This document shows positions 1 through 41,441 of a stretch of DNA of 41,441 bases, piece after piece. The stretch's first letter is position 1. The number at the start of each line of letters is the position of its first letter. Origin of the DNA: a virus (taxonomy: Duplodnaviria > Heunggongvirae > Uroviricota > Caudoviricetes). Under the pieces are notes generated by a model that ran no database searches, was not told the origin of the DNA, and saw only the letters and a program-made list of their open reading frames with translations. Location of the stretch: IMG/VR virus record IMGVR_UViG_2541047739_000012. One strand, given 5' to 3'. Position numbers and translations under genes: made by a program.

Positions 1-585
1 TTACATTGTGTCTGGTTCTTCCGGCCACTCAATATCAGGTGCAGTTGATGTATCAACACGGTTCAGCAACACCCGATACTTCTTCCATGCTGCCAGCAAC
101 GACGCCTCTTCTTCCGTTGCGATCTCCAGATCCACAGCATCCTGAAGCGGCGCTATATGCTCACTGGCTACCTGCATCAGGCTGTTTTTTGTTTCTTCCG
201 CCTCCCGGATCCGGAACAGTTTTTCTGCTTCTGCATCTTTCACCCAGGCTGTGCCGTTCCACTTCTGAAACTCCCCTTCCGGGGATAACCAGGTGACATT
301 TTCCGGTAATGGGCCAAGTTCAGAAATAAATAACGCGTCGCCGGAAGCCACGTCATAGACGGTTTTACCCCGATGGTCTTCAACGAGATGCCACGATGCC
401 TCATCACTGTTGAAAACAGCCACAAAGCCAGCCGGAATATCTGGCGGTGCAATATCGGTACTGTTTGCTGGCAGACCTGTATGAGGCGGAATGTATGCGT
501 CACCTTCACCAATAAATTCATTAGTTCCGGCCAGCAGATTATAAATTGTTATGGTCCGTGGTTGTTCACTCATTCTGAATGCCAT
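1..585 (-). CDS. tfa: tail fiber assembly protein (Tfa)
   Basis: Complete 194-aa ORF (stop at 1-3, ATG at 583-585); start overlaps the upstream stop as TAATG; sequence recalled as lambda Tfa-like; sits directly after the side tail fibre gene. Confidence 0.85.
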
Positions 586-3500
586 TATGCGAGCCTCACA
601 ATGTAGTTAAATGCGATGTTTTTGACGGTGTTTTCCGCGTTACCAGCAGCGTTAACGGTGATGGTGTGTCCATGTGAACCAATCGCAACAGAGTGCGTAT
701 GAGCACCAATACCGACAGTATGCGCGTGTGCACCCGCAGATGCTGCTGTGCCGGACAGTGAGTGTGTATGGTTTCCTTCTGAAGATGATTTACCTACCCA
801 TTGGGAGGTGCCACTGGTTAATGAGCCACTGATACCAACCTGATTAGTCCCGCTAACTTGAGTACTCCCTGCCGGAAACATTCCAGTAGGTTGACTCCCG
901 CTATTCGTTCTGGGCCCAGTCTGACTATGTTGGTGGGCCCCAGCTGAACTTGTAGAGCCGCTCAGACTGTGCGTATGCGCCCCGGTGTTATTCGTGGATT
1001 TAGTGCCGTAATCAAACGACGATGTGGTTTTCGTCCCCAAATCAGTACTGGATGCGCTGGCGCTGTGGGTATGCGATTTAATGCCGTCCTGTTCCTGAGA
1101 CAATACGGCCCGACCACTGGCAGGTTTGCCCTTAATCGTCCAGCCACGCATATCAGGGATCACGCCTGACGGATAAGCGGCTGCAAGTTTCGGGTAAGCA
1201 GATTTGTCAAAAGTCTGCCCCTGCATCAGGGCATAACCAGACGGAACGGTATCTGATGGCCACGGGATTGGTGCGCCAACAGGGTAGCTTTCTGGTGGAA
1301 TATTTTTCGAGGTATAAACTTCTGCCCAGTCTTCCTCAAAACCATAGCCATCTCTTGAAGAACGGTAGAACAGACCACCATTTCTGTAATGCGCCTTCAT
1401 CTGCAGGGTCCGGCAACTTCCGACTCCGGTATAGAAGTTAACCAGAATATAGCTGTCGCCAGAGCGAGTGACATTGTAAGCGCCTGATTCGGCATTCCAG
1501 GGAACGCCACCATCCGCATCGGCATATGTATCCGTTGCCCTTCTGGCAAAAGCAGCCACATGCGCGGCGGTTAAAGTAATATCTTTGGAACCATCAAACT
1601 CAACACCAGAAACCCGTCTTGGCGTTTGCAGCTTTGTTGCTGTTAATGCATTACCGTTCAGACTTGCGGACAGTTTGGTTCCAATAACCAGTTCGCCGGT
1701 TGCGTTATCAATAGCAAACGGTCTTAATGTATTCCAGCCACCATAAACATCACCTTGATTGGTAAGCAGCAGGTAAGTTTTAGCGCCATCATTACGCCAT
1801 AATGCACCATACTCCCCACCTATCATTCGAATCTGATTACCACCACGCGCTACAATTTCGTCTGTGGCAAAAAGTTTTTTGCACGACAAGTTATCGTTAA
1901 CGATTAACGAATGAGACTCATAAAAACCACGCCCACTCTTAAAATCAAGGATAACGTCCGCCGCGATACATTCAGTCGCCGGATTTGTTGCCCCAAACTT
2001 ATAGGTCGTATCATTAACAACGAGATCAGCACCAGGTGCGGATATTGACAGGCCATCTTCGATAAACGCAAAAACAGGGAAAGCAGCGCCATCAACATAG
2101 AACACAGAGCGCAAATCATCACCCTTATTACTCATCATTATTGAGTGGATGGCTCGTTCATTGTTTTGATATTGCCAGAACATTCCATAAGCATAACGCC
2201 CCCTGTCAGTCCAGCCACCAGGCATAACAAATCCGTTAAACTCGCAGTTATTCATCGGATCGCCTGCGGTTCGCGTTGCCGTGGTGATAATGACCCTTGA
2301 TGCCAGTTCGCTTACTGAGCCAGCAGAACGCATAACAACAACAGGGTAATATTTTCCAGATGTTGCACCTGCAGGAGCGTTAACCCGCACATAACGCATA
2401 CCACGCTTATCAGCAAAGTCTGTTTTACTGACCGCGTTAATGTTGTTCAGGAAGCGTCCCTTATCGGGTATATCAGCGCCGTTCTGGTCTTTCTGCAGAC
2501 GTTTATCTGCATTGTCATAGGCTGATTTTACTGCCTTTGGCGTTGCCGCCAGCGTTTCAGACGTACTGTTGGTCGCACTGCTGAGCTGTACTATCCCCTT
2601 TTTCGTCGTACTTGCATCCTCAAGCGCCACGGCGGATGCAATATCCTCTGCCCGTTTAGCTGCTGTCTCGGCGCGCGTTGCCGCGGATTCCGCCGTACTT
2701 TTGCTCTGAGCTGCTGCCGTCGCACTGCCAGCAGCCTCTGTCGCCTTCGTGGATGCCGTCGTGGCGCTGCTCTTCGCTGCTGACGCCTGTCTGGTCGCCT
2801 CATCTTTTGAAGCAGACGCCGATGATGCCGATGACGCCGCCGAACTGGCGGACGATGCGGCAGCCGTTTCTGAGGATTCTGCGCTGGTTTCCGACGCTTT
2901 CGCGTTCGTTTCGGATGTCTTCGCTGCGGAAGCAGACCTCGCTGCTGCGCTGGCCTGTTCAGTGGCTTCGCCAGCCTTCGTTGTGGCTGTTGAAGCAGAC
3001 GATGCGGCACTTTCTGCCGACTTTCCGGCAGCGGTGGCACTGGCTGAGGCCTGCCCGGCACTTGTTGACGCGGCACTGGCAGATGATGCAGCCGCTGTTT
3101 TTGAGCCTGCCGCAGCTGAGGCGCTCTGTCCCGCTGCCGTCTCAGAAGACCTGGCGTTCGTCTCGGACGTTTTTGCCGCCTTCGCGGAATTTGCTGCCGC
3201 CGTTGCCGAGGAAGCTGCGCTACTGGCGCTCGAGAATGCGTTCGTTTCTGATGATTTTGCCGCCTCTTTTGAAGCCGACGCATCCCGGGCTGAGGTGGCA
3301 GCTTCTGACGCTTTCGTAGTCGCGGTGGATGCAGAAGTGGCGGCTGATTGTTGTGACGCTGCAGCATTCGTTTCTGACGTTTTCGCCGCACCGGCACTGG
3401 TAGCTGCCGCGCTTTTTGAGGACTCTGCAGCGGCAGCACTTTTTTCCGCTTCAGTGGCCTTTGTTGATGCCGTTCCTGCGCTGGAAGACGCTGACTGAGC

Positions 3501-3995
3501 CGACGAAGCGGCCTGTCCGGCTGACGTGCTGGCTGCGCGTGCTGAGCCTGCAGCATCAGTCGCATGGGTTGCCGCCTCACGGGCAGATGTGCCGGCATCG
3601 CCGGCTGACTTCTTCGCGGCTGCCGTGTTCTGTGCCACCGCGGACGCGTTACGCGCCACCTCTTCCACCATCAGTTCAAAACGGCGCAGAGCCTCCGGAC
3701 GGGCATCATCCTCCGTCATGGCACCGAGAAAATCATTCAGCGTACCGGGTTGAGAATCTTCATACACGGTGATGGTCCCGGCATGTGACGGCGGGAATCC
3801 TTCCACCAACAGAATAACGCTGTACTGACCGTACTCAACGTCCATGCTGTAACGCCCGGCTTCATCCGGATTTTCTGAGGCCAGCGTGTTCACCACCACC
3901 GTGGTGCTGTTACGTTTTGCTTTCAGCTGGATTGTGCAGTTCTGTACCGGTTTTCCTGTGCCGTCTTTCAGTACACCTGAAATCTTTACTGCCAT
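585..3995 (-). CDS. stf: side tail fiber protein (Stf)
   Basis: ORF track gives 585..4001 (GTG at 4001); preferred ATG at 3993-3995 ([18 protein letters not shown]..., lambda Stf-like N-terminus) preceded by GGGGTGA. Long Ala/Ser/Thr low-complexity middle with repeated SETNA motifs; C-terminal Gly/His-rich HxH repeats (GAHTHS, GAHAHT, GSHGHT) typical of fibre tips. Confidence 0.8.
2600..3560 (-). repeat. low-complexity imperfect tandem repeats inside stf (Ala/Ser/Thr-rich coding repeats)
   Basis: Repetitive GC-rich DNA gives long spurious ORFs in other frames on both strands (2591..3598, 2678..3319, 2749..3498); protein shows recurring KTSETNA / SAAxSA units. Confidence 0.7.
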
Positions 3996-4004
3996 ATTCA
4001 CCCC

Positions 4005-4033
4005 ACAAAAAAGCCCGCCTGAACCGGCGGGCT
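4005..4033 (-). terminator. intrinsic terminator-like hairpin between lom and stf
   Basis: Minus strand: stem AGCCCGCC / GGCGGGCT (8 bp) with 6-nt loop, followed by TTTTTT and then the stf RBS and start. Confidence 0.55.
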
Positions 4034-4059: not shown

Positions 4060-4659
4060 TCAGAATTTATAACCGACACCCACGATGAAACCGTCAGTGC
4101 GCCAGTCACCACTGCCAGAACCTTCATAAGCAATATCAATGGCCACGGATTCGGTCGGGTTAAACTGCACGCCAGCCCCCCACGCCAGAGACGTGTTGCT
4201 GTGGCGACCGTCATCACTTCCGGTCAGCACATCGTGCGTTTTCCCCTTGTTGTCAGTTACGCGGAGATAATCCCCGGAGAAAGTCGACACACGGCTGTAA
4301 GCCACACCCGCCATCGCATACGCGCTGAACCATTCATTCACGCGTACAGACGGCCCCGCCATCACGCTGAACCAGCGGTTACGCACAGAATCTTCATGCC
4401 AGCGGGTATCGCTGTAACGGGTAAGCTGGCGATTCTTGTCTCCTGCATAGCTGAATGACGTCACCATCCCCAGCGTGTCCGTAAACTCATAACGGTATTT
4501 CACGTTAATCCCGTTCAGATCATCGCTGCCGGAAACGTTCGTCGAGGCATGAAGATAGCCCGCGCTCAGCGTGGACTGATGTTCAGACGCCCATGCAGGC
4601 GCACCGGATACGGCCAGACAGATGGCTGCGGACAAAATGGCGGCATAAAGTTTACGCAT
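4060..4659 (-). CDS. lom: outer membrane protein Lom (Ail/Lom family)
   Basis: 199-aa ORF with N-terminal signal peptide ([24 protein letters not shown]), beta-barrel-like alternating pattern, C-terminal ...GVGYKF; lambda Lom-like; sits between J and stf as in lambda. Confidence 0.85.
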
Positions 4660-4681: not shown

Positions 4682-4707
4682 ATAAAAAAGGCGTCATTTC
4701 TGACGCC
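4682..4707 (-). terminator. intrinsic terminator between J and lom
   Basis: Minus strand: stem GGCGTCA / TGACGCC (7 bp) with 4-nt loop, followed by TTTTTTAT; lies 19 nt downstream of the J stop. Confidence 0.6.
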
Positions 4708-4725
4708 CGTTATGGGTTATAAAAT

Positions 4726-7700
4726 TCAGCTGATACTGATACCTGCTGTGGATTTTTTCATCACCACAACCAGCAGATCGCTGATACTGGTTGTTGGTGT
4801 CCAGTTATTCGCTCCTGATGAAGATACGGTGAATGTCAGTGTCAGCGTCCCCTGTCCGGCAGGCATATCTATAACTGAGGAAAATACGCCCTGAGCATCC
4901 GTCGTGGACTGATTAAAAATCTCCTGACCATTGCGGGTCACTCTTAACCGGCAGGTTGAATACCAGTATGACTGTTGGTTATTACTGTTGAAATTCTCAT
5001 GCTTACCACCGCGGAATAACACTGGCGGTATCATGACCTGCCGGTCAAATTTCTGATCATCACTGATTCTTACCGTGATGGTGCCACTGGCATAACTGTT
5101 CGTGCGGGGGAAAGACTTGCTGACCGTTTTGACAATATCGCCTTCAATCTGATTGGCTGACAGTTTCCCCTTAATCTGACAGTTCTCATTAATCGTGACA
5201 TTGTTGAGCGTCCCGGAGTTCGCATTCACACTGCCACTGATATCCGCATTTTTAGCAGTCAGCTTTCCGTCCGGTGTCAGGGAAAATGCCGGAGGATTAC
5301 CGCCGCTGGTAATGGTGGGAGCCGTCAGATATTTCAGGAACACTTCATTCATGAATATCTGATCGCCCTGACCAACAAACATCGGCTTTGTGTTGCCATT
5401 CGCAGGATTAATCATCGCAATCCTGTCTGCCGCCAGCAGCACCTGACTCTGCATGCCGTCGGGGGTGTTCTCAATACCGGCACCGATACCCGCAATATAA
5501 AGGCGTCCGTCCTGCATCTGCTGCAGCTTCACTGCCCACATGCTGTTCAGGTTATTATTTGTATCAACCTGAACCTTCTGTATCTGCTGGATCGCTGCAC
5601 TCTGGTCTTCCAGTTTCTTATTGACGGTCTGTGTTATTTCATTGCTGACATCCGTTATGGACGTCCTGATTTCAGTCAGGTCAGGCGCAAGCTGACCGTT
5701 ATCAATCTGCGTCCACAGCTCCTGAGCCAGATGGGTTTTCCCTATCTCGCCTTTGAAAAAATCCAGATAGCCTGATGCATCATCACTCGGCTGACCGACA
5801 GCCTCCACGAATGCCGATTTGCCAACGGTGTTCACACTGCGAACGTAAAAATAATAATCATGGCCCGGTTTGATATTGATACTGGCGGCTATCCAGTACA
5901 GCGCCGTACCAAGATAACGCGCGCTGGTTTCAACCTGCCTGATATCGGCAATCCGCGTTTCCGAGAACCAGAACTCAAACTGTACCGTCGGATCATAAAC
6001 GGCAAGATGCGGTATGGCGGTTATCTGAAAATAGCCCGGCGTCAGCTCAATCCGCGACGGTGCTGCCGGTGCGGCAATCCGGAACGATACCGACGCCGGA
6101 TCGCCCTGCTGTCCCCACGCATTTACCGCCCGGACCGTCAGCGTGTAACGCCCCAGCGCCAGTTGCCTGAAGCGGTATGTGGTTTCCGTCGTCCGGGCCG
6201 TGCTGACCAGCCGCTCACTGCCGTCATCCGCTGTTACGGTCAGACGGAGCAGGAAGCTCACGCCCTTCACCACCTTCGGCGTGTCCCAGCGCGCCAGCAC
6301 CTGATATTCCCCGCTGTCTGCGGTGACTTCGGCGGTCAGGTGCTGCACCGCTGGCGGCGTGACACCATTCACCGTGCCGCTCTGGTCGCCGTCAAAGTGC
6401 GCCCCGTTATCCACGATGGCTTCTTTTTCCGGTACATGCTGCACGGCGGTGATGGCATACGTGCCGTCGTCGTTCTCACGGATACTCACGCAGCGGAACA
6501 GGCGCTGGCGCAGCGTCGGCAGCTTCAGCCCCCACACGCTGTATCCGGCAACGCCGTCAGGAACACGGCTCACTTTTACCTTCACGCCGTCGGTGACGGA
6601 CTGGACCTCCACGCTGACCGGATTGCCACTTCCGTCAACCAGGCTTATCAGCGTGGTACCGGAGGATGGCAGCGTGATTTCACGGTCGAGCGTCAGCGTC
6701 CGGGTCTGGCTGTCCACCGCCAGCACGCGCCCGCCGGTGCTGATACCGGCATAGTCATCATCGCAGATTTCAATGACATCCCCCGGTACATGGCGAAGCC
6801 CTTCCGCACCCACGCTGAAGTCCACGGTCTGCGTTTCCAGCAGTTCCGTTTTAATCAGCCACAGCCCGGCGCGGTGCGCCTGCCCCCGGCTGGTACAGCC
6901 AAAGGCATCCATCTTCGTGACGTTACGACCGTAACGGGCAATGGCCTGCGTATCTTCAACAAGCTCTGTCGCCGTCTCCCAGCCGTTATCCGGATCAATC
7001 CAGTTCACCTCAACGGCATTATGGCGGTCCTTCAGGGCGCTGAAGCTGTAGCGGAACGGCGCGCCATCATCCGGCATCACCACATTACTGCGGTTATAGG
7101 TCCACACCTTATCTGACTGTCGGTCCTGCACGAACGTCAGCGTCTGCCCGTTCCATACCGGCATACAGCGCATCGCCGAGCAGAAATCACTGAGCACATC
7201 CCACGCCTTGCGCTGTGTGGTCAGGTACGCATTACAGGTGATGCGCGGCTCCGTGCCGCCAAAGCCGTCCGGCACTGACTGGTCGCAATACTGGCCGATA
7301 ACATACAGCGCCCATTTATCCACATCTGCCGCACCAAGACGTTTCCCCATGCCGTAGCGCGGGTGGGTCAGCATATCCCACAGACACCAGGCCATGTTGT
7401 TGCTGTATGCCGGTTTTAACGTTCCGTCCCAGATACCGCTGTATTGCCGCGTCTGCGGGTTATAGTTCGACGGCACCTGCAGAATGCGCCCGCGCAGATG
7501 ATAATTACGGCTCACCTGCTGGCTGCCGAACTGTTCCGAGTCCACCTGCACGCCGACCAGTGCCGTGTTCGGGTAGCACTGTTTCACATCGATGATTTCG
7601 GTGTATGACGACCAGAGCGTTTTGTTCTGCAGCTGGTCTGTGGTGCTGTCCGGCGTCATCCTGCGCATCCGGATATTAAACGGGCGCGGCGGCAGGTTAT

Positions 7701-8208
7701 CCACCACCACCGAGGCCAGATACTGCGAGGTGGTTTTGCCCTTAATGGTGATGTCTTTTTCCGTCACCCAGCCACCATTACGCTGTATCTGAACCAGCAG
7801 GCGAACTTCCGACGGATTCCGGTCACCCTTTGAGGTGGTTTCCACCAGTGCCTGCACACCGAAGGTAAAGCGCAGTCGGTCGATGTTTGCAGACGTGATG
7901 GTGCGGGTGATCGGCGTGTCATATTTCACTTCCGTACCCAGCACCGTCTCGGAACCGGAGGATTCAAACCCCTCCGGCGGAGTCTGCTCCTGCTCACCTG
8001 CCCGGAACACCACCGTGACACCGGAGATATTGGTATTCCCCTCACTGTCCAGCACCGGCGTACTGTTCAGCAGCACGCTTTTTAACCCATCCACCGGACC
8101 TTCAACCGGCCCTTCGCTGATGGCATCGATCACACTCAGCAACTGCGTGGACTTCAGGTTGTCCTTCGCTTCGCGCGGGGTATGCCCCTTACTGCTGCCT
8201 TTACCCAT
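4726..8208 (-). CDS. J: tail tip / host specificity protein J (central tail fibre)
   Basis: 1160-aa ORF, ATG at 8206-8208; N-terminus [24 protein letters not shown]... lambda J-like; size and position after I match lambda gene order. Confidence 0.9.
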
Positions 8209-36694: not shown

Positions 36695-39121
36695 ATGAGC
36701 ACTGATAAAGAAGAATTTGCACTATATTGCGAAGCAAAAAATGACAAAGTAAGAAAACGCCTGGGAATTAAAGGTGGTTTTTACTGGACTACAGCAAAAA
36801 AATTATCTGTTGCAATCTCCCGCTGCATTACCGCAATGGATGACAACGATTATGATGAAGACGACTTTAAAAAACCCGTCCGCGTCAATTTGCCCGTTGT
36901 TGACGACCTTCCGCCAGAAGGCGTGTTTGATACTGAATTCTGCAACCGCTATGAAAAAGGCGGGAAAGATGGCATCACAATGACATTTATCGGCCCTTCC
37001 CCCTCTGTTCGGGACAAACCAGCCAGCACTGACAATACCAACATCAACGGCGAAGACATGACTGAGATTGAGGAGAGCATGCTTCTGCCTGTCTCCGGTC
37101 AGGAACTGCCCATTCGTTGGCTTGCTCAACACGGCAGCGAAAAACCAGTAACGCACGTTTCACGCGACGAACTCCAGGCATTACACATTGCACGGGCTGA
37201 AGAACTACCGGCTGTTACTGCTCTGGCTATTTCGCATAAAACCAGTCTGCTCGACTCGCTGGAGATTCGCGACCTCCACAAACTGGTTCGTGACACTGAC
37301 AAAGTTTTCCCTAATCCTGGTAATTCAGACCTGGGACTAATAACTGCTTTTTTCGAAGCATACCTGGACGCTGACTACATTGATCGGGGTCTGCTGACAA
37401 AAGAGTGGATGAAAGGAAATCGTGTTTCACGCATCACCCGCACGGCTTCCGGTGCTAATGCTGGCGGTGGGAACAAAACCGATCGCAATCCGAATTTAGT
37501 ACACACCCTCGACACACTGGATGTGGAGATTGCAGCAGCCACACTTCCGGTGGATTTTAATATTTATGAAATTCCGGGCAGCGTTTATCGTCGCGCAAAA
37601 GAAGTAGTCCTGAAAAAAGAAAGTCCGTTCAAAGAATGGTCCGCAGCACTTCGTGCAACCCCGGGTATTCTGGACTATTCCCGCGCCGCTATTTTTGCAC
37701 TTATCCGAAGCGCACACCCTGAATTTTATCACTACCCGGGACGCCTTCAGGGGTATATCAACGCCTATTTGACGGAAACTGATCACGAGAACCCCAGCAA
37801 GGAAACTCTCACAGCTGCCCGGCATACGCCGGAAAAAGATATCCTGGAAGAAATTAACCGCGAGGTGGTTACTGAACGTGAAACAGAGGAAGAAAAACCA
37901 CAACCATCTGACGCAATGGCAGGTGAACAGGCAACAACTGAAACAATGGAACCGGATACAACTGAACATTGCCAGAACGCTCAGTCGCAGGTGAGTTCCG
38001 CTAACCAAGTAAAAGTCACCGCTGACGAAGTAAACAAAATTATGCAGGCAGCCAATATCAGCCAGCCTGACGCCGATAAGTTACTTGCTGTATCGCGTGG
38101 TGAATTTGTTGAGGGGATTAGCGACCCTAATGATCCGAAATGGGTCAAGGGGATCCAGACTCGCGATTCTGTGAACCAGAACCAGCATGAATCGGAACGG
38201 AACGACCAAAAAGCGGAACAAAACAGCCCAAATGCGTTACAAAACGAGCCAGAAACGAAACAATCCGAACCAGTAGCGCAACAGGAACCGGAAAAAGTCT
38301 GCACCGCCTGCGGTCAGAGCGGTGGCGGCAACTGCCCTGATTGTGGCGCGGTGATGGGCGACGCAACATACCAAGAAACATTCGATGAAGAGAATCAGGT
38401 TGAAGTTCAGGAAAATGATCCGGAGGAAATGGAAGGCGCTGAACATCCACACAAGGAGAACCCTGGCGGCAATCAGCATCACGCCAGCGATAATAAAACT
38501 GGCGAGGCGACAGATCCCTTAATTAAGGTGAATGGTCATCATAAGCTCACATCCACCAGCAGAGCGGGGATTCATCTGATGATCGACCTTGAAACCATGG
38601 GAAAAAATCCCGATGCCCCGATTATCTCAATAGGCGCAATATTTTTCGATCCACAAACCGGAGATATGGGACCGGAATTTAGCAAGACCATCGATCTGGA
38701 TACTGCTGGCGGAGTCATTGATCGTGACGTCATTAAATGGTGGCTGAAGCAATCACGTGAAGCGCAGTCTGCCATTATGACCGATGAAATCCCGTTAGAT
38801 GATGCACTACTGCAATTGCGGGAATTTATCGCCGAAAACTCCGGTGAATTTTTTGTTCAGGTCTGGGGTAATGGGGCCAACTTCGACAACGTGATTTTAC
38901 GCCGTTCATACGAACGACAGGGTATCCCCTGCCCGTGGCGCTACTGCAACGATCGCGATGTACGCACAATCGTTGAGCTGGGGAAAGCCATAGACTTCGA
39001 TGCCAGAACTGCTATCCCATTCGAAGGTGAGCGCCATAATGCACTTGATGACGCTCGTTACCAGGCAAAATACGTTTCAGCTATCTGGCAAAAACTGATC
39101 CCGAGTCAGGCTGATTTTTAA
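36695..39121 (+). CDS. large exonuclease with C-terminal DEDDh 3'-5' exonuclease domain (often annotated exodeoxyribonuclease VIII-like)
   Basis: 808-aa ORF; C-terminal DEDDh motifs (MIDLETMG; WGNGANFDNV; HNALDDARY); acidic low-complexity linker and zinc-ribbon-like CTACGQSGGGNCPDCG; located upstream of xis/int. Confidence 0.7.
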   Translation: MSTDKEEFALYCEAKNDKVRKRLGIKGGFYWTTAKKLSVAISRCITAMDDNDYDEDDFKKPVRVNLPVVDDLPPEGVFDTEFCNRYEKGGKDGITMTFIGPSPSVRDKPASTDNTNINGEDMTEIEESMLLPVSGQELPIRWLAQHGSEKPVTHVSRDELQALHIARAEELPAVTALAISHKTSLLDSLEIRDLHKLVRDTDKVFPNPGNSDLGLITAFFEAYLDADYIDRGLLTKEWMKGNRVSRITRTASGANAGGGNKTDRNPNLVHTLDTLDVEIAAATLPVDFNIYEIPGSVYRRAKEVVLKKESPFKEWSAALRATPGILDYSRAAIFALIRSAHPEFYHYPGRLQGYINAYLTETDHENPSKETLTAARHTPEKDILEEINREVVTERETEEEKPQPSDAMAGEQATTETMEPDTTEHCQNAQSQVSSANQVKVTADEVNKIMQAANISQPDADKLLAVSRGEFVEGISDPNDPKWVKGIQTRDSVNQNQHESERNDQKAEQNSPNALQNEPETKQSEPVAQQEPEKVCTACGQSGGGNCPDCGAVMGDATYQETFDEENQVEVQENDPEEMEGAEHPHKENPGGNQHHASDNKTGEATDPLIKVNGHHKLTSTSRAGIHLMIDLETMGKNPDAPIISIGAIFFDPQTGDMGPEFSKTIDLDTAGGVIDRDVIKWWLKQSREAQSAIMTDEIPLDDALLQLREFIAENSGEFFVQVWGNGANFDNVILRRSYERQGIPCPWRYCNDRDVRTIVELGKAIDFDARTAIPFEGERHNALDDARYQAKYVSAIWQKLIPSQADF

Positions 39122-39179: not shown

Positions 39180-39383
39180 ATGAGCAGCTTATTTTTAACC
39201 GAAGATGAATTGCTAATATTAACGGGCTGCAAATATGCAAGCCACCAGCGAAAATGGTTAATGGAAAACGGGCTTCCGTTCTATACCAATCGTAGTGGCA
39301 AACCGATTGTCAGCCGGGATCTATTTACCTGCAATAAAACTTTACCACCACGCGAGGTAGAGCCGAATTTTGGTGCGATCTGA
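39180..39383 (+). CDS. xis: excisionase-like small protein
   Basis: 67-aa ORF immediately upstream of and overlapping the integrase start (TGATG); call by position and size. Confidence 0.5.
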   Translation: MSSLFLTEDELLILTGCKYASHQRKWLMENGLPFYTNRSGKPIVSRDLFTCNKTLPPREVEPNFGAI

Positions 39384-40408
39384 TGGGAAGACGAAGGAAA
39401 AATCCTGAACACGAAAAATTACCTCCAAATGTATACCCAAATAAATATAGTTATGTATGGAAACCAACATCCAGAGAATCTGTCACACTAACCGCCATCA
39501 AGGATGGTTTAGCTGCTTTATGGAAAAAGTATGAGGAAACTGTAAATAATCGCGATCGTGCAATGACATTCGGTCGCTTGTGGGAAAAATTCCTCGCCAG
39601 CGCCTATTACAGTGACCTTAGTCCAAGAACACAAAAAGATTATCTGCAACATCAAAAAAAGTTGCTTGCCGTATTCGGTAAGGTACCAGCGGATTCCATA
39701 AAACCAGAACACATCCGTCGATACATGGACAAAAGAGGGGAGCAGAGTAAAACGCAAGCCAACCATGAAAAAAGCAGTATGTCCCGTGTTTACAGTTGGG
39801 GGTATGAGCGAGGGTACGTGAAGGCTAACCCATGTGCAGGTGTAAGTAAATTCAAGGCCAAAAACCGCGAACGATATGTAACCGACAAAGAATACCAGGC
39901 AGTATTAAGCGTTGCACCTCTTCCTGTTTTTATCGCAATGGAAATTGCCTATCTGTGTGCAGCGAGGGTTTCCGATGTGTTATCGCTGAAATGGGAACAG
40001 ATTGGAAACGACGGGATATTCATCCAGCAAGGGAAAACCGGAAAAAAACAGATAAAAGCATGGAGTCCACGATTACAGGCAGCGATCGAAAAAGCAAAAC
40101 AGTTACCAAAATCTGCCTATGTGATCAGCAATCAATACGGCAACCGATATATGTACAAAGGCTTTAACGAAATGTGGGTAGAAGCAAGAAATCGCGCAGG
40201 CAAAATTTCAGGTATTTTAACCGACTTCACCTTTCATGATCTGAAGGCGAAAGGAATTTCAGACTATGAAGGAAGCAGCCGGGATAAGCAACTTTTCTCT
40301 GGTCACAAAACCGAAGGGCAAGTGCTAATCTATGACAGAAAGGTTAAAGTTTCACCAACACTTGATGTCCCGTTACCTGAAAATATTCCAAGAAAATATT
40401 CCAAGTAA
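39383..40408 (+). CDS. int: tyrosine integrase
   Basis: 341-aa ORF with an N-terminal arm-binding-like basic region and a C-terminal catalytic domain (…HDLKAKGISDY…, …LIYDRK…); adjacent to a tRNA gene. Confidence 0.9.
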   Translation: MGRRRKNPEHEKLPPNVYPNKYSYVWKPTSRESVTLTAIKDGLAALWKKYEETVNNRDRAMTFGRLWEKFLASAYYSDLSPRTQKDYLQHQKKLLAVFGKVPADSIKPEHIRRYMDKRGEQSKTQANHEKSSMSRVYSWGYERGYVKANPCAGVSKFKAKNRERYVTDKEYQAVLSVAPLPVFIAMEIAYLCAARVSDVLSLKWEQIGNDGIFIQQGKTGKKQIKAWSPRLQAAIEKAKQLPKSAYVISNQYGNRYMYKGFNEMWVEARNRAGKISGILTDFTFHDLKAKGISDYEGSSRDKQLFSGHKTEGQVLIYDRKVKVSPTLDVPLPENIPRKYSK

Positions 40409-40460: not shown

Positions 40461-40550
40461 TGGCGGAGAGAGGGGGATTTGAACCCCCGGTGGAGTTGCC
40501 CCCACTCCGGTTTTCGAGACCGGTCCGTTCAGCCGCTCCGGCATCTCTCC
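40461..40550 (-). tRNA. serU: tRNA-Ser (anticodon CGA), host gene serving as prophage attachment site
   Basis: 90-nt minus-strand cloverleaf with long variable arm: acceptor GGAGAGA, anticodon arm CCGGT-CTCGAAA-ACCGG, T-loop TTCAAAT, CCA; its 3' end faces the integrase 53 bp away. Confidence 0.85.
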
Positions 40551-40643
40551 GTTCAGATGGTTGCCATGATGCCAGGAAATTTGGCATTTTAACAGTCCCT
40601 GTCCGTGCAATTTTGTTCAAGTGACGAGTTTGCGAGCAAAACG

Positions 40644-41441
40644 ATGATTAAGTGGCCCTGGAAAGTACAAGAATCAGCACATCAAACTGCCCTTCCCTGG
40701 CAGGAAGCACTATCGATCCCCCTTTTAACGTGTCTGACAGAACAGGAACAAAGCAAATTGGTCGCTCTTGCCGAACGTTTTTTACAGCAAAAACGGCTTG
40801 TTCCTTTACAGGGCTTTGAGCTGAATTCATTAAGAAGCTGCCGGATAGCACTTCTATTTTGCCTGCCCGTTCTGGAGTTAGGACTGGAATGGCTGGATGG
40901 TTTTCATGAAATCTTAATTTATCCTGCGCCATTTGTGGTCGATGATGAATGGGAAGACGATATCGGTCTGGTGCATAACCAACGTATTGTTCAGTCAGGT
41001 CAGAGCTGGCAGCAAGGGCCTATCGTTTTGAACTGGTTGGATATACAAGATTCTTTTGATGCTTCTGGTTTTAACCTGATTATTCATGAAGTCGCTCATA
41101 AGCTGGACACCCGTAACGGCGATCGCGCCAGCGGAGTTCCCTTTATTTCGTTGCGTGAGGTTGCTGGCTGGGAACACGATCTTCATGCTGCAATGAACAA
41201 CATTCAGGAAGAAATCGAATTAGTTGGTGAGAATGCGGCGAGCATTGATGCTTATGCTGCCAGTGATCCTGCTGAATGTTTTGCCGTACTTTCTGAATAT
41301 TTCTTTAGCGCCCCAGAACTTTTTGCTCCTCGTTTCCCTTCATTGTGGCAACGTTTCTGTCAATTTTATCAACAAGATCCTTTGCAGAGACTGCATCACG
41401 CTAATGATACAGACTCGTTTTCGGCGACGAATGTTCATTAA
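40644..41441 (+). CDS. mtfA: Mlc titration factor A (host gene)
   Basis: ATG at 40644 ([20 protein letters not shown]...) to TAA at 41439-41441; recalled as E. coli MtfA; contains the HEVAHK metallopeptidase-like motif; different codon usage from the prophage. Confidence 0.85.

Follow-up and report, generated by a model that had tools for sequence, protein, structure and literature searches.

Modular organization of an StfR-type side tail fibre gene in a lambdoid prophage, with a length-conserved heptad tract and a hypervariable head insert

Which parts of a long, repeat-rich side tail fibre are held constant, and which parts vary? The question is raised by the stf gene in a 41,441-nucleotide stretch of caudoviral DNA (IMG/VR record IMGVR_UViG_2541047739_000012; hereafter the window), for which a first-pass annotation, made from the sequence alone, had proposed a side tail fibre of about 1136 aa with an Ala/Ser/Thr repeat tract liable to expansion and contraction. 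The reading that we favour, with high confidence, is that stf encodes a homotrimeric, modular StfR-type lambdoid side tail fibre composed of a collar, a rod, a middle shaft, a gp37-type tip and a specificity head.

The stf gene and its modules

According to the ORF list and translation, the stf coding sequence is intact, starts with an ATG at 3995 and specifies 1136 aa, the size first proposed; the same 3411-nt frame is annotated by RefSeq in relatives. A full-length match (1-134) to PF08400 (phage_tail_N, "prophage tail fibre N-terminal"; E = 6.1e-72), together with the gene order J-lom-stf-tfa, identifies the product as a side tail fibre and bears out the initial assignment. This order, derived from ORFs and Pfam and annotated likewise in relatives, lies at the end of the tail operon, and the tfa start shares one base with the stf stop. 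The window also contains ORFs for a tape measure protein, an HK97-type head, terminase, repressor and integrase, and the element carrying stf is a complete-looking lambdoid prophage. The gene and its parts are as follows.

585..3995, minus strand: stf, StfR-type side tail fibre (stop codon 585-587; GGGGTGA precedes the ATG at 3995)
1..585, minus strand: tfa, tail fibre assembly chaperone, 194 aa (Pfam Caudo_TAP, E = 4e-45)
4012..4033, minus strand: terminator-like hairpin and T-run separating lom from stf (consensus scan; 7 of the 8 stem base pairs are G-C)
3714..3995, minus strand: N-terminal collar/attachment domain, aa 1-94 (PDB 9e7m/9mgh "Tail fiber protein", E = 6e-52; PF08400)
2610..3680, minus strand: predicted coiled-coil rod, 51 unbroken A-x-x-S-A-x-x heptads, aa 106-462 (heptad stack, autocorrelation, AF2, lambda homology)
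2760..3074, minus strand: 15-heptad (105-aa) block, aa 308-412, present here and in StfR and absent from lambda Stf (single clean gap against orf-401)
2433..2609, minus strand: rod-to-shaft junction, aa 463-521, Mu gpS-like (PDB 5yvq/8ju3 match, aa 440-521)
1296..2432, minus strand: middle shaft, aa 522-900 (Pfam PF21446, E = 3e-27; PDB 4uxe/5nxf, 8ju3)
1101..1295, minus strand: tip collar domain, aa 901-965 (Pfam Collar PF07484, E = 7.6e-12 at aa 907-954; 2XGF alignment)
927..1100, minus strand: ascending needle arm, aa 966-1023, with HxH pairs 1-3 at aa 975, 1007 and 1021 (2XGF alignment)
771..926, minus strand: hypervariable head (distal tip) insert, aa 1024-1075 (identity to 121 relatives drops to 0.31-0.34 here only)
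588..770, minus strand: descending needle arm, aa 1076-1136, with HxH pairs 4-7 at aa 1076, 1090, 1099 and 1108 and a conserved C-terminus (78% identity to T4 gp37)

RefSeq gives the name stfR to genes of this class, a full-length model of the lambda homologue has been published, and a crystal structure of the T4 tip is available. Matches covering at least 80% of stf occur in 1231 of 5426 complete E. coli genomes, so that this is a common allele class of ordinary StfR type; the earlier description of the fibre as unusually long holds against the wider family (51 heptads compared with a median of 24), but not within this class, where K-12 StfR itself has 1120 aa.

The module boundaries and homologies listed above are direct observations. 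Pfam and PDB searches gave matches for every module; for the heptad tract itself, neither BLAST nor Pfam returns a domain. The middle shaft includes a T4 gp34-type trimerisation domain at aa 663-762 and a Mu gpS-like segment at aa 813-907 (PDB 8ju3). An insertion map places an extra 44-aa module after aa 469-474 in 99 of 121 relatives, and in the BH100N Stf a different middle is combined with the rod and tip found here, including the same tip allele. The middle shaft is a swappable module, and in the reading favoured here the whole fibre is built of independently exchangeable ones.

The closest named gene, K-12 stfR, belongs to a defective prophage and has IS-disrupted lom and tail genes as neighbours, which raises the question of whether stf is likewise a decaying remnant in a cryptic element, now without function. 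The present stf ORF is intact, however, and ORFs for tfa, lom, J, tape measure, head, terminase, repressor and integrase are all found in the window. Constraint is also evident in the 95-100% amino acid identity to relatives outside the head (everywhere except aa 1010-1075), and we regard decay as very improbable.

The heptad rod and its length

Residues 106-462 consist of 37% Ala, 23% Ser and 11% Thr (71% together), the fraction of the three ranging from 0.65 to 0.80 per 40-aa block over aa 121-440, and bulky hydrophobic core residues are absent. The tract and its composition agree with the first-pass annotation, but the repeat unit proposed there does not: KTSETNA occurs only three times in stf (four as K[ST]SETNA) and SAAxSA four times, while the true unit is the A-x-x-S-A-x-x heptad, with Ala at position 1 in 47 of 49, Ser at position 4 in 37 of 49 and Ala at position 5 in 35 of 49. 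A single register, observed directly, persists throughout, and the lag-7 autocorrelation of the tract has a z of 10. Heptad runs were counted with a strict single-register walk; a permissive detector was dropped, as the Ala/Ser richness caused several registers to fire at once.

Coiled coils do not typically have an Ala/Ser core, a point against the rod model. The high Ala, Ser and Thr content, the missing bulky core residues and the absence of recognizable domains could suggest an intrinsically disordered low-complexity linker rather than a structured rod. Disorder, however, would not be expected to impose one phase over 51 heptads, and AF2, run on the single sequence, predicts near-continuous helix (aa 98-378 and 393-484) at medium confidence (mean pLDDT 73.6) with two low-confidence breaks. 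A weak match connects the rod to the coiled-coil shaft of T7 gp17. The length of the tract is also maintained at up to 11% nucleotide divergence, and in Ur-lambda cryo-EM and cryo-ET have resolved the homologous region, which shows a trimeric bundle as well as a rigid segment of the proximal fibre. The lambda homologue is described as a trimer whose proximal coiled coil spans aa 102-393 and whose distal part, gp37-like, binds OmpC (PMC12617516). We therefore consider a disordered linker highly improbable and predict, from modelling and homology, that the tract is an α-helical coiled-coil rod. Its homologue in Ur-lambda Stf is the modelled proximal coiled coil, and its calculated length, taking 0.1485 nm per residue, is ~53 nm.

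Three long ORFs overlap the tract (ORF list).

2591-3598, minus strand: shadow ORF of 335 aa, in another frame of the tract
2678-3319, plus strand: shadow ORF of 213 aa
2749-3498, plus strand: shadow ORF of 249 aa

These ORFs had been attributed to DNA repeats as artefacts on both strands. They do exist, but codon shuffling and Tandem Repeats Finder (TRF) analysis show that DNA repeats are not their source: stop-free stretches just as long appear in frames +2 and -2 of codon-shuffled tracts, and the ORFs, which mostly reflect codon composition, are treated as artefacts. Frame -3 is the only one to exceed the shuffles, its stretch being longer than in 99.3% of them (0.7%), which, along with the sheer length of the ORFs, is what could be said for at least one real overprinted gene. 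The predicted products, however, are rich in Arg/Pro/Gln or Ala/Asp/Phe, mirror images of the Ala/Ser/Thr gene, and a Pfam search of them found no family above the cut-off; such a gene is almost certainly not present.

On the length of the tract, the first-pass annotation and the data diverge. If the tract were a hypermutable repeat array, in which slippage or unequal recombination made fibre length differ often between strains, length variants should be frequent, and some are indeed seen among close relatives: one protein with 15 additional heptads (+105 aa; P0002, strain ET729), four with one additional heptad (+7 aa), and a few isolated proteins with small out-of-register indels of +4, +1, -1 and -3 aa. 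The tract here and that of lambda differ by exactly 15 heptads, and across 75 family representatives the heptad run ranges from 5 to 52 (median 24; lambda 36). Yet of the 118 close relatives for which both anchors of the tract could be located, 108 have a tract of the same length, about 10 of the 118 cluster representatives being variant, and in K-12 StfR the length is identical. The tract is carried by 3582 genomes; in a spread sample of 60 E. coli records, none of the 49 near-full-length tract matches has a net indel, at nucleotide identities of 88.6-97.9%. Moreover, the DNA substrate for slippage is absent: TRF reports no heptad-period array in the tract, its sole array there being one of 25 nt with period 9, and direct repeats reach no more than 28-29 nt, with 63-86% identity. 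The length differences between close relatives reside instead in the head insert and the 44-aa shaft module. This invariance across the population, which is directly observed, is essentially what the annotation had named as grounds for giving up its proposal when repeat numbers were compared among relatives. The array model is largely refuted and we consider it very unlikely to hold; rod length changes rarely, mainly by in-register duplications.

The two large rod changes both amount to exactly 15 heptads, in register (lambda 36, StfR 51, strain ET729 66). A general 15-heptad quantum was considered, but the broad, unquantised spread across the 75 family representatives speaks against it. The fixed length in E. 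coli (49 of 49 sampled, at up to 11% divergence) and the 15-heptad steps leave room for a reading in which the Ala/Ser-core rod is a length-calibrated spacer, or molecular ruler, rather than a passive stalk. We consider this reading speculative and rather unlikely; if it is true, how far the fibre reaches, measured against the central J fibre or the depth of the envelope, capsule or O-antigen, would be under selection.

A gp37-type tip with a variable head insert

Residues 901-1136 align with the T4 gp37 tip (PDB 2XGF; phmmer E = 2.8e-82, chain residues 26-242), with 81% identity over aa 901-1022. The C-terminus of stf contains seven HxH pairs, six of them of the form G-x-H-x-H, and all seven align one-to-one with those of T4 gp37. 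All 14 His residues of aa 970-1110 fall within HxH pairs, whereas the segment, when shuffled, contains 1.3 HxH on average (P about 5e-5). A His-rich tip with motifs like those of T-even phages, as first suggested, is thus confirmed, and by this alignment the tip is homologous to the collar-needle-head tip of gp37. The fold assignment follows from sequence homology, as an AF2 monomer model of aa 896-1136 built on a 7-row alignment was unusable (pLDDT 34). In gp37, HxH pairs supply the ligands of His6 iron sites, of which T4 has seven (PMC6116203, PMC11705849), and by analogy we infer seven His6 metal (iron) sites in the present tip.

Between HxH boxes 3 and 4 the pattern of conservation, read directly from the alignments, changes abruptly. 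At least five unrelated head-insert alleles occupy one framework; compared with K-12, nucleotide identity falls to ~40% between the His boxes, and the breakpoints lie at these boxes. The allele in the window, 50 aa long, was found in 25 of 5426 genomes. The head insert is presumed, by analogy, to be the receptor-contacting specificity cassette, and it is in this insert and in the middle shaft module that close relatives differ in fibre length and, presumably, in specificity. The receptor recognized by the rare 50-aa allele may be different from OmpC; the literature was searched for Stf chimeras and for receptors assigned to this allele, and no usable report was found.

Taken as a mechanism, the N-terminal collar domain (aa 1-94) would anchor the fibre to the tail tip complex, and the 51 heptads would form a coiled-coil rod with a small-residue core that serves as a spacer and extends the reach of the fibre. 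The middle shaft (aa 463-900), related to Mu gpS and T4 gp34, would follow the rod. In the tip, each chain would run outward along the needle, form a small head and return, and the seven HxH pairs from three chains would produce seven octahedral His6 sites that staple the intertwined needle. The 50-aa insert would touch the host receptor and set specificity, and the downstream Tfa would act as the folding chaperone. Trimer state, iron binding and a role in accelerating adsorption are all expected for the stf product by analogy with its homologues.

Comparison with known fibres and implications

Rac StfR of K-12 (1120 aa; WP_000279097) is collinear with the present protein at 95% amino acid identity and shares the N-terminal domain, 51-heptad rod, middle shaft, seven HxH pairs and downstream tfa. 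Its head insert, in contrast, is unrelated and 16 aa shorter (34 versus 50 aa), and its gene lies in the decayed Rac element, whereas stf here is part of a complete-looking prophage.

For lambda, the comparison used orf-401 and orf-314; a family representative of 774 aa (P0159) was rejected as lambda Stf, its C-terminus being unrelated. Lambda and Ur-lambda Stf (orf-401 plus orf-314), with Tfa, have the same collar domain (PDB 9e7m, E = 6e-52) and gene position. The rods start and end alike, with 81% identity over aa 1-352, and orf-314 carries a gp37-like HxH tip at 70% identity. The lambda rod, however, has 36 heptads to the 51 found here, orf-401 being collinear save for the one 105-aa block; the lambda middle is much shorter and unrelated after "...ATPKAVK"; and there are eight HxH pairs rather than seven, with a different head insert. 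The cryo-EM study of Ur-lambda describes the N-terminal domain as the part by which the fibre attaches to the tail, at the gpV/gpM junction, and Stf as a trimer present as four fibres per virion, which accelerates adsorption through the outer-membrane receptor OmpC (PMC12617516).

The T4 gp37 tip aligns end to end with aa 901-1136, at 81% and 78% identity in the two arms and with an identical C-terminus, whereas the head insert (18 aa longer here) has only 18% identity and the remainder of gp37 is unrelated. Both systems have a dedicated downstream chaperone, gp38 in T4 and Tfa here (tfa, 1-585, minus strand), and the T4 tip has been derived from a lambda-like origin (PMC3157838). Homology to Mu gpS (aa 440-521 and 813-907; 5yvq, 8ju3) and to the T4 gp34 trimerisation domain (aa 706-777) is local, and the whole architectures differ.

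Ala/Ser-rich heptad tracts of fibre genes might be expected to behave as unstable repeats, an expectation that these results correct. The module map, consisting of a collar, a 51-heptad rod, a swappable middle and a head cassette flanked by His boxes, may be of practical use in fibre engineering and host-range prediction. If the head insert is the specificity cassette it is presumed to be, specificity differences between near-identical prophage fibres would be concentrated in ~50 residues.

Setting and prevalence of the fibre gene

The stf gene, read at 585-3995 (-), is an intact open reading frame with an ATG start, encoding an StfR-type side tail fibre of 1136 aa, and its interpretation as a decayed pseudogene has little or no support. 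The rest of the window carries an integrase, a CI-like repressor, a RecE-like exonuclease, a terminase, an HK97-type head, a tape measure protein and lambda-type tail genes; stf is therefore housed in a complete-looking lambdoid prophage. A Pfam search of the fibre found four domains.

Features of the stf region and of the fibre
4726-8208, J, upstream of stf
4060-4659, lom, upstream of stf
2760-3074 (-), 15-heptad block (105 aa) distinguishing this rod from that of lambda
1-585, tfa, Caudo_TAP tail fibre assembly gene, one-base overlap with the stf stop codon
aa 1-134, prophage tail fibre N-terminal domain (Pfam, E = 6e-72)
aa 663-762, T4 gp34-type trimerisation domain (Pfam)
aa 907-954, Collar domain (Pfam)
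Phage_fiber repeat (Pfam, marginal)
aa 901-1022, collar and ascending arm, 81% identity to T4 gp37
aa 1023-1073, insert between the arms, 18% identity to T4 gp37
aa 1074-1136, descending arm, 78% identity to T4 gp37

Strong terminator-like hairpins flank lom on both sides (4012-4033 and 4689-4708, -), an arrangement reminiscent of a moron. Just some 10 nt separate the T-run of the downstream hairpin (4012-4033) from the stf ATG, so that stf expression presumably depends on transcription passing through this terminator. Elsewhere, four neighbouring tRNA genes (Gly-TCC, Thr-TGT, Lys-TTT and Met-CAT) occupy 24950-25259 (-), and an 808-aa RecE-like ORF (36695-39121, +) contains Exonuc_VIII and Rv2179c-like 3'-5' exonuclease domains. 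A tyrosine integrase (39383-40408, +), tRNA-Ser(CGA) (40461-40550, -) and an MtfA-like Peptidase_M90 ORF (40605-41441, +) lie in succession; the segment 39383-41441 is probably the prophage end with its attachment site at the serine tRNA.

The first-pass annotation had called the fibre unusually long. It is indeed long compared with lambda Stf, yet it belongs to a standard allele class: by megablast, the gene is matched at a coverage of at least 80% in 1231 of 5426 complete E. coli genomes, where many of the matches are annotated stfR, and cultured lambdoid phages also encode it. The StfR of the K-12 Rac prophage (1120 aa) is collinear with it at 95% identity. The observation is thus genuine, but the gene is already known and common. 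In NCBI/nr many near-identical Stf proteins go by the name "short-chain fatty acid transporter", and a few by "phage portal protein", which look like propagated misannotations; entries of 1314-1328 aa have about 180-195 aa extra at the N-terminus and a precomputed portal-family Pfam match, suggestive of a wrongly called start or of fused genes.

The heptad rod and the constancy of its length

The Ala/Ser/Thr-rich composition of the central tract (aa 106-462) was confirmed, but the motifs by which it had been described are rare (KTSETNA three times, SAAxSA four times) and the true signal is a strict seven-residue periodicity. Autocorrelation of residue identity has maxima at all multiples of 7 (z of 8-10), and stacking the tract by seven gives 51 unbroken heptads in a single register; among the 49 heptads of aa 113-461, Ala fills position 1 in 47, Ser position 4 in 37 and Ala position 5 in 35. 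Single-sequence AlphaFold2 modelling of aa 96-490 returned helix at aa 98-378 and 393-484 (mean pLDDT 73.6), with low-confidence breaks near fragment residues 153-165 and 278-297. For the homologous region of Ur-lambda Stf, work with cryo-EM, cryo-ET and AlphaFold3 describes a trimer in which a collar domain (aa 1-91) and a linker precede the proximal coiled coil (aa 102-393), followed by a hinge and then by an OmpC-binding distal region homologous to T4 gp37 (PMC12617516). A disordered linker, as a rival account of the tract, has little or no support beside these data.

Lambda orf-401, one of the two reading frames of lambda Stf, aligns with the query end to end with a single clean gap of 105 aa, and the rod is therefore that of lambda (36 heptads) enlarged by 15 more (aa 308-412). 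Taking 0.1485 nm for each residue, the calculated, not measured, lengths are about 53 nm here and about 37 nm in lambda.

The annotation had further proposed that the tract is prone to expansion and contraction, to be checked by repeat-number variation among relatives. Its longest direct repeats, chiefly KTSETNA heptads, are 28-29 nt at 63-86% identity, and Tandem Repeats Finder reported only a 25-nt array of period 9. Both tract anchors were located in 118 of 120 close cluster representatives, and in 108 of these the length is exactly that of the query; the exceptions are one in-register duplication of +105 aa (strain ET729, NZ_CP100927.1), a few of +7 aa and isolated cases of +4, +1, -1 and -3 aa. 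The tract DNA alone is covered to at least 80% in 3582 of 5426 genomes, and in a 60-row sample drawn across the entire ranking of matches each of the 49 near-full-length matches covers the query tract exactly and in one piece (97.9-88.6% identity). This constancy makes the tract essentially invariant among relatives, the outcome that the annotation itself had named as contrary to its proposal, and a hypermutable repeat array has little or no support. Across deeper time rod length does differ: among 75 representatives at the 50% identity level with the N-terminal domain in common, unbroken runs of 5 to 52 heptads occur (median 24), with the StfR class at the top. Both large differences in rod length observed, between lambda and StfR and between StfR and ET729, measure exactly 105 aa; the ET729 duplication, the only large one among close relatives, involves a different segment from the lambda-distinguishing block. 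The identical size may be coincidence, since the distribution in the 75 representatives shows no 105-aa quantum.

Three long ORFs overlapping the tract do exist, and a control stretch of stf has none. They were correctly taken as artefacts, but DNA repeats are not needed to produce them: shuffling codon order, which destroys the repeats and keeps composition, left stretches without stop codons that were just as long in frames +2 and -2, and frame -3 alone exceeds the shuffle expectation. The tract has 62% GC against 50% for the remainder of the gene, and the products matched no Pfam family at its cut-off. The shadow ORFs are by-products of GCN/TCN/ACN-rich coding sequence; overprinted genes are a reading with little or no support.

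The tip, the head insert and module exchange

The likening of the His-rich tip to T-even fibre tips was right but understated, for the relation is one of homology: phmmer against PDB sequences matched aa 901-1136 to T4 gp37 (2XGF) with E = 2.8e-82. The seven HxH pairs align one for one with those of T4 gp37, and all 14 His within aa 970-1110 belong to such pairs. The octahedral His6 iron sites of 2XGF and related fibres are each built from three symmetry-related HxH pairs, and T4 gp37 has seven such sites (PMC6116203, PMC11705849); we infer that the query tip binds metal. AF2 modelling of the tip as a monomer gave nothing usable (pLDDT 34). The kinship of the lambda Stf/Tfa ends with T4 gp37/gp38 has been recognised since the 1980s-90s (PMC3157838).

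In an alignment of 121 relatives, every 25-aa block outside aa 1001-1075 is 95-100% identical to the query, and within that interval identity falls to 0.31-0.34. Within an otherwise constant framework, the segment between HxH pairs (His boxes) 3 and 4, the head insert, takes at least five unrelated allelic forms, 34-51 aa long. The query allele recurs in just one of the 121 relatives; of 5426 complete genomes, 25 carry it, 24 of these with at least 99% identity. The entire 16-aa length difference from K-12 StfR lies within this segment, and nucleotide identity between the two falls from roughly 100% to roughly 40% over the stretch from aa ~1011 to ~1089, which places the breakpoints at the His boxes. 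The further length differences among the close relatives are due to a 44-aa shaft module that 99 of 121 carry after aa ~469, and to rare insertions of 53 or 106 aa after aa 718. The 946-aa Stf of E. coli BH100N (L004 2511-5348) has the query's N-domain, rod (96%) and tip allele (95%) with a shorter, unrelated middle, and is thus direct evidence that the three parts of the fibre exchange independently.

The evidence best supports a trimeric fibre of modular build. In such a fibre the collar would anchor the structure, the Ala/Ser-core coiled coil would serve as a spacer of fixed length, and the shaft would be beta-structured and exchangeable. The gp37-type needle would be stapled by iron, Tfa would assist folding, and the small head insert carried on the needle would set receptor specificity.
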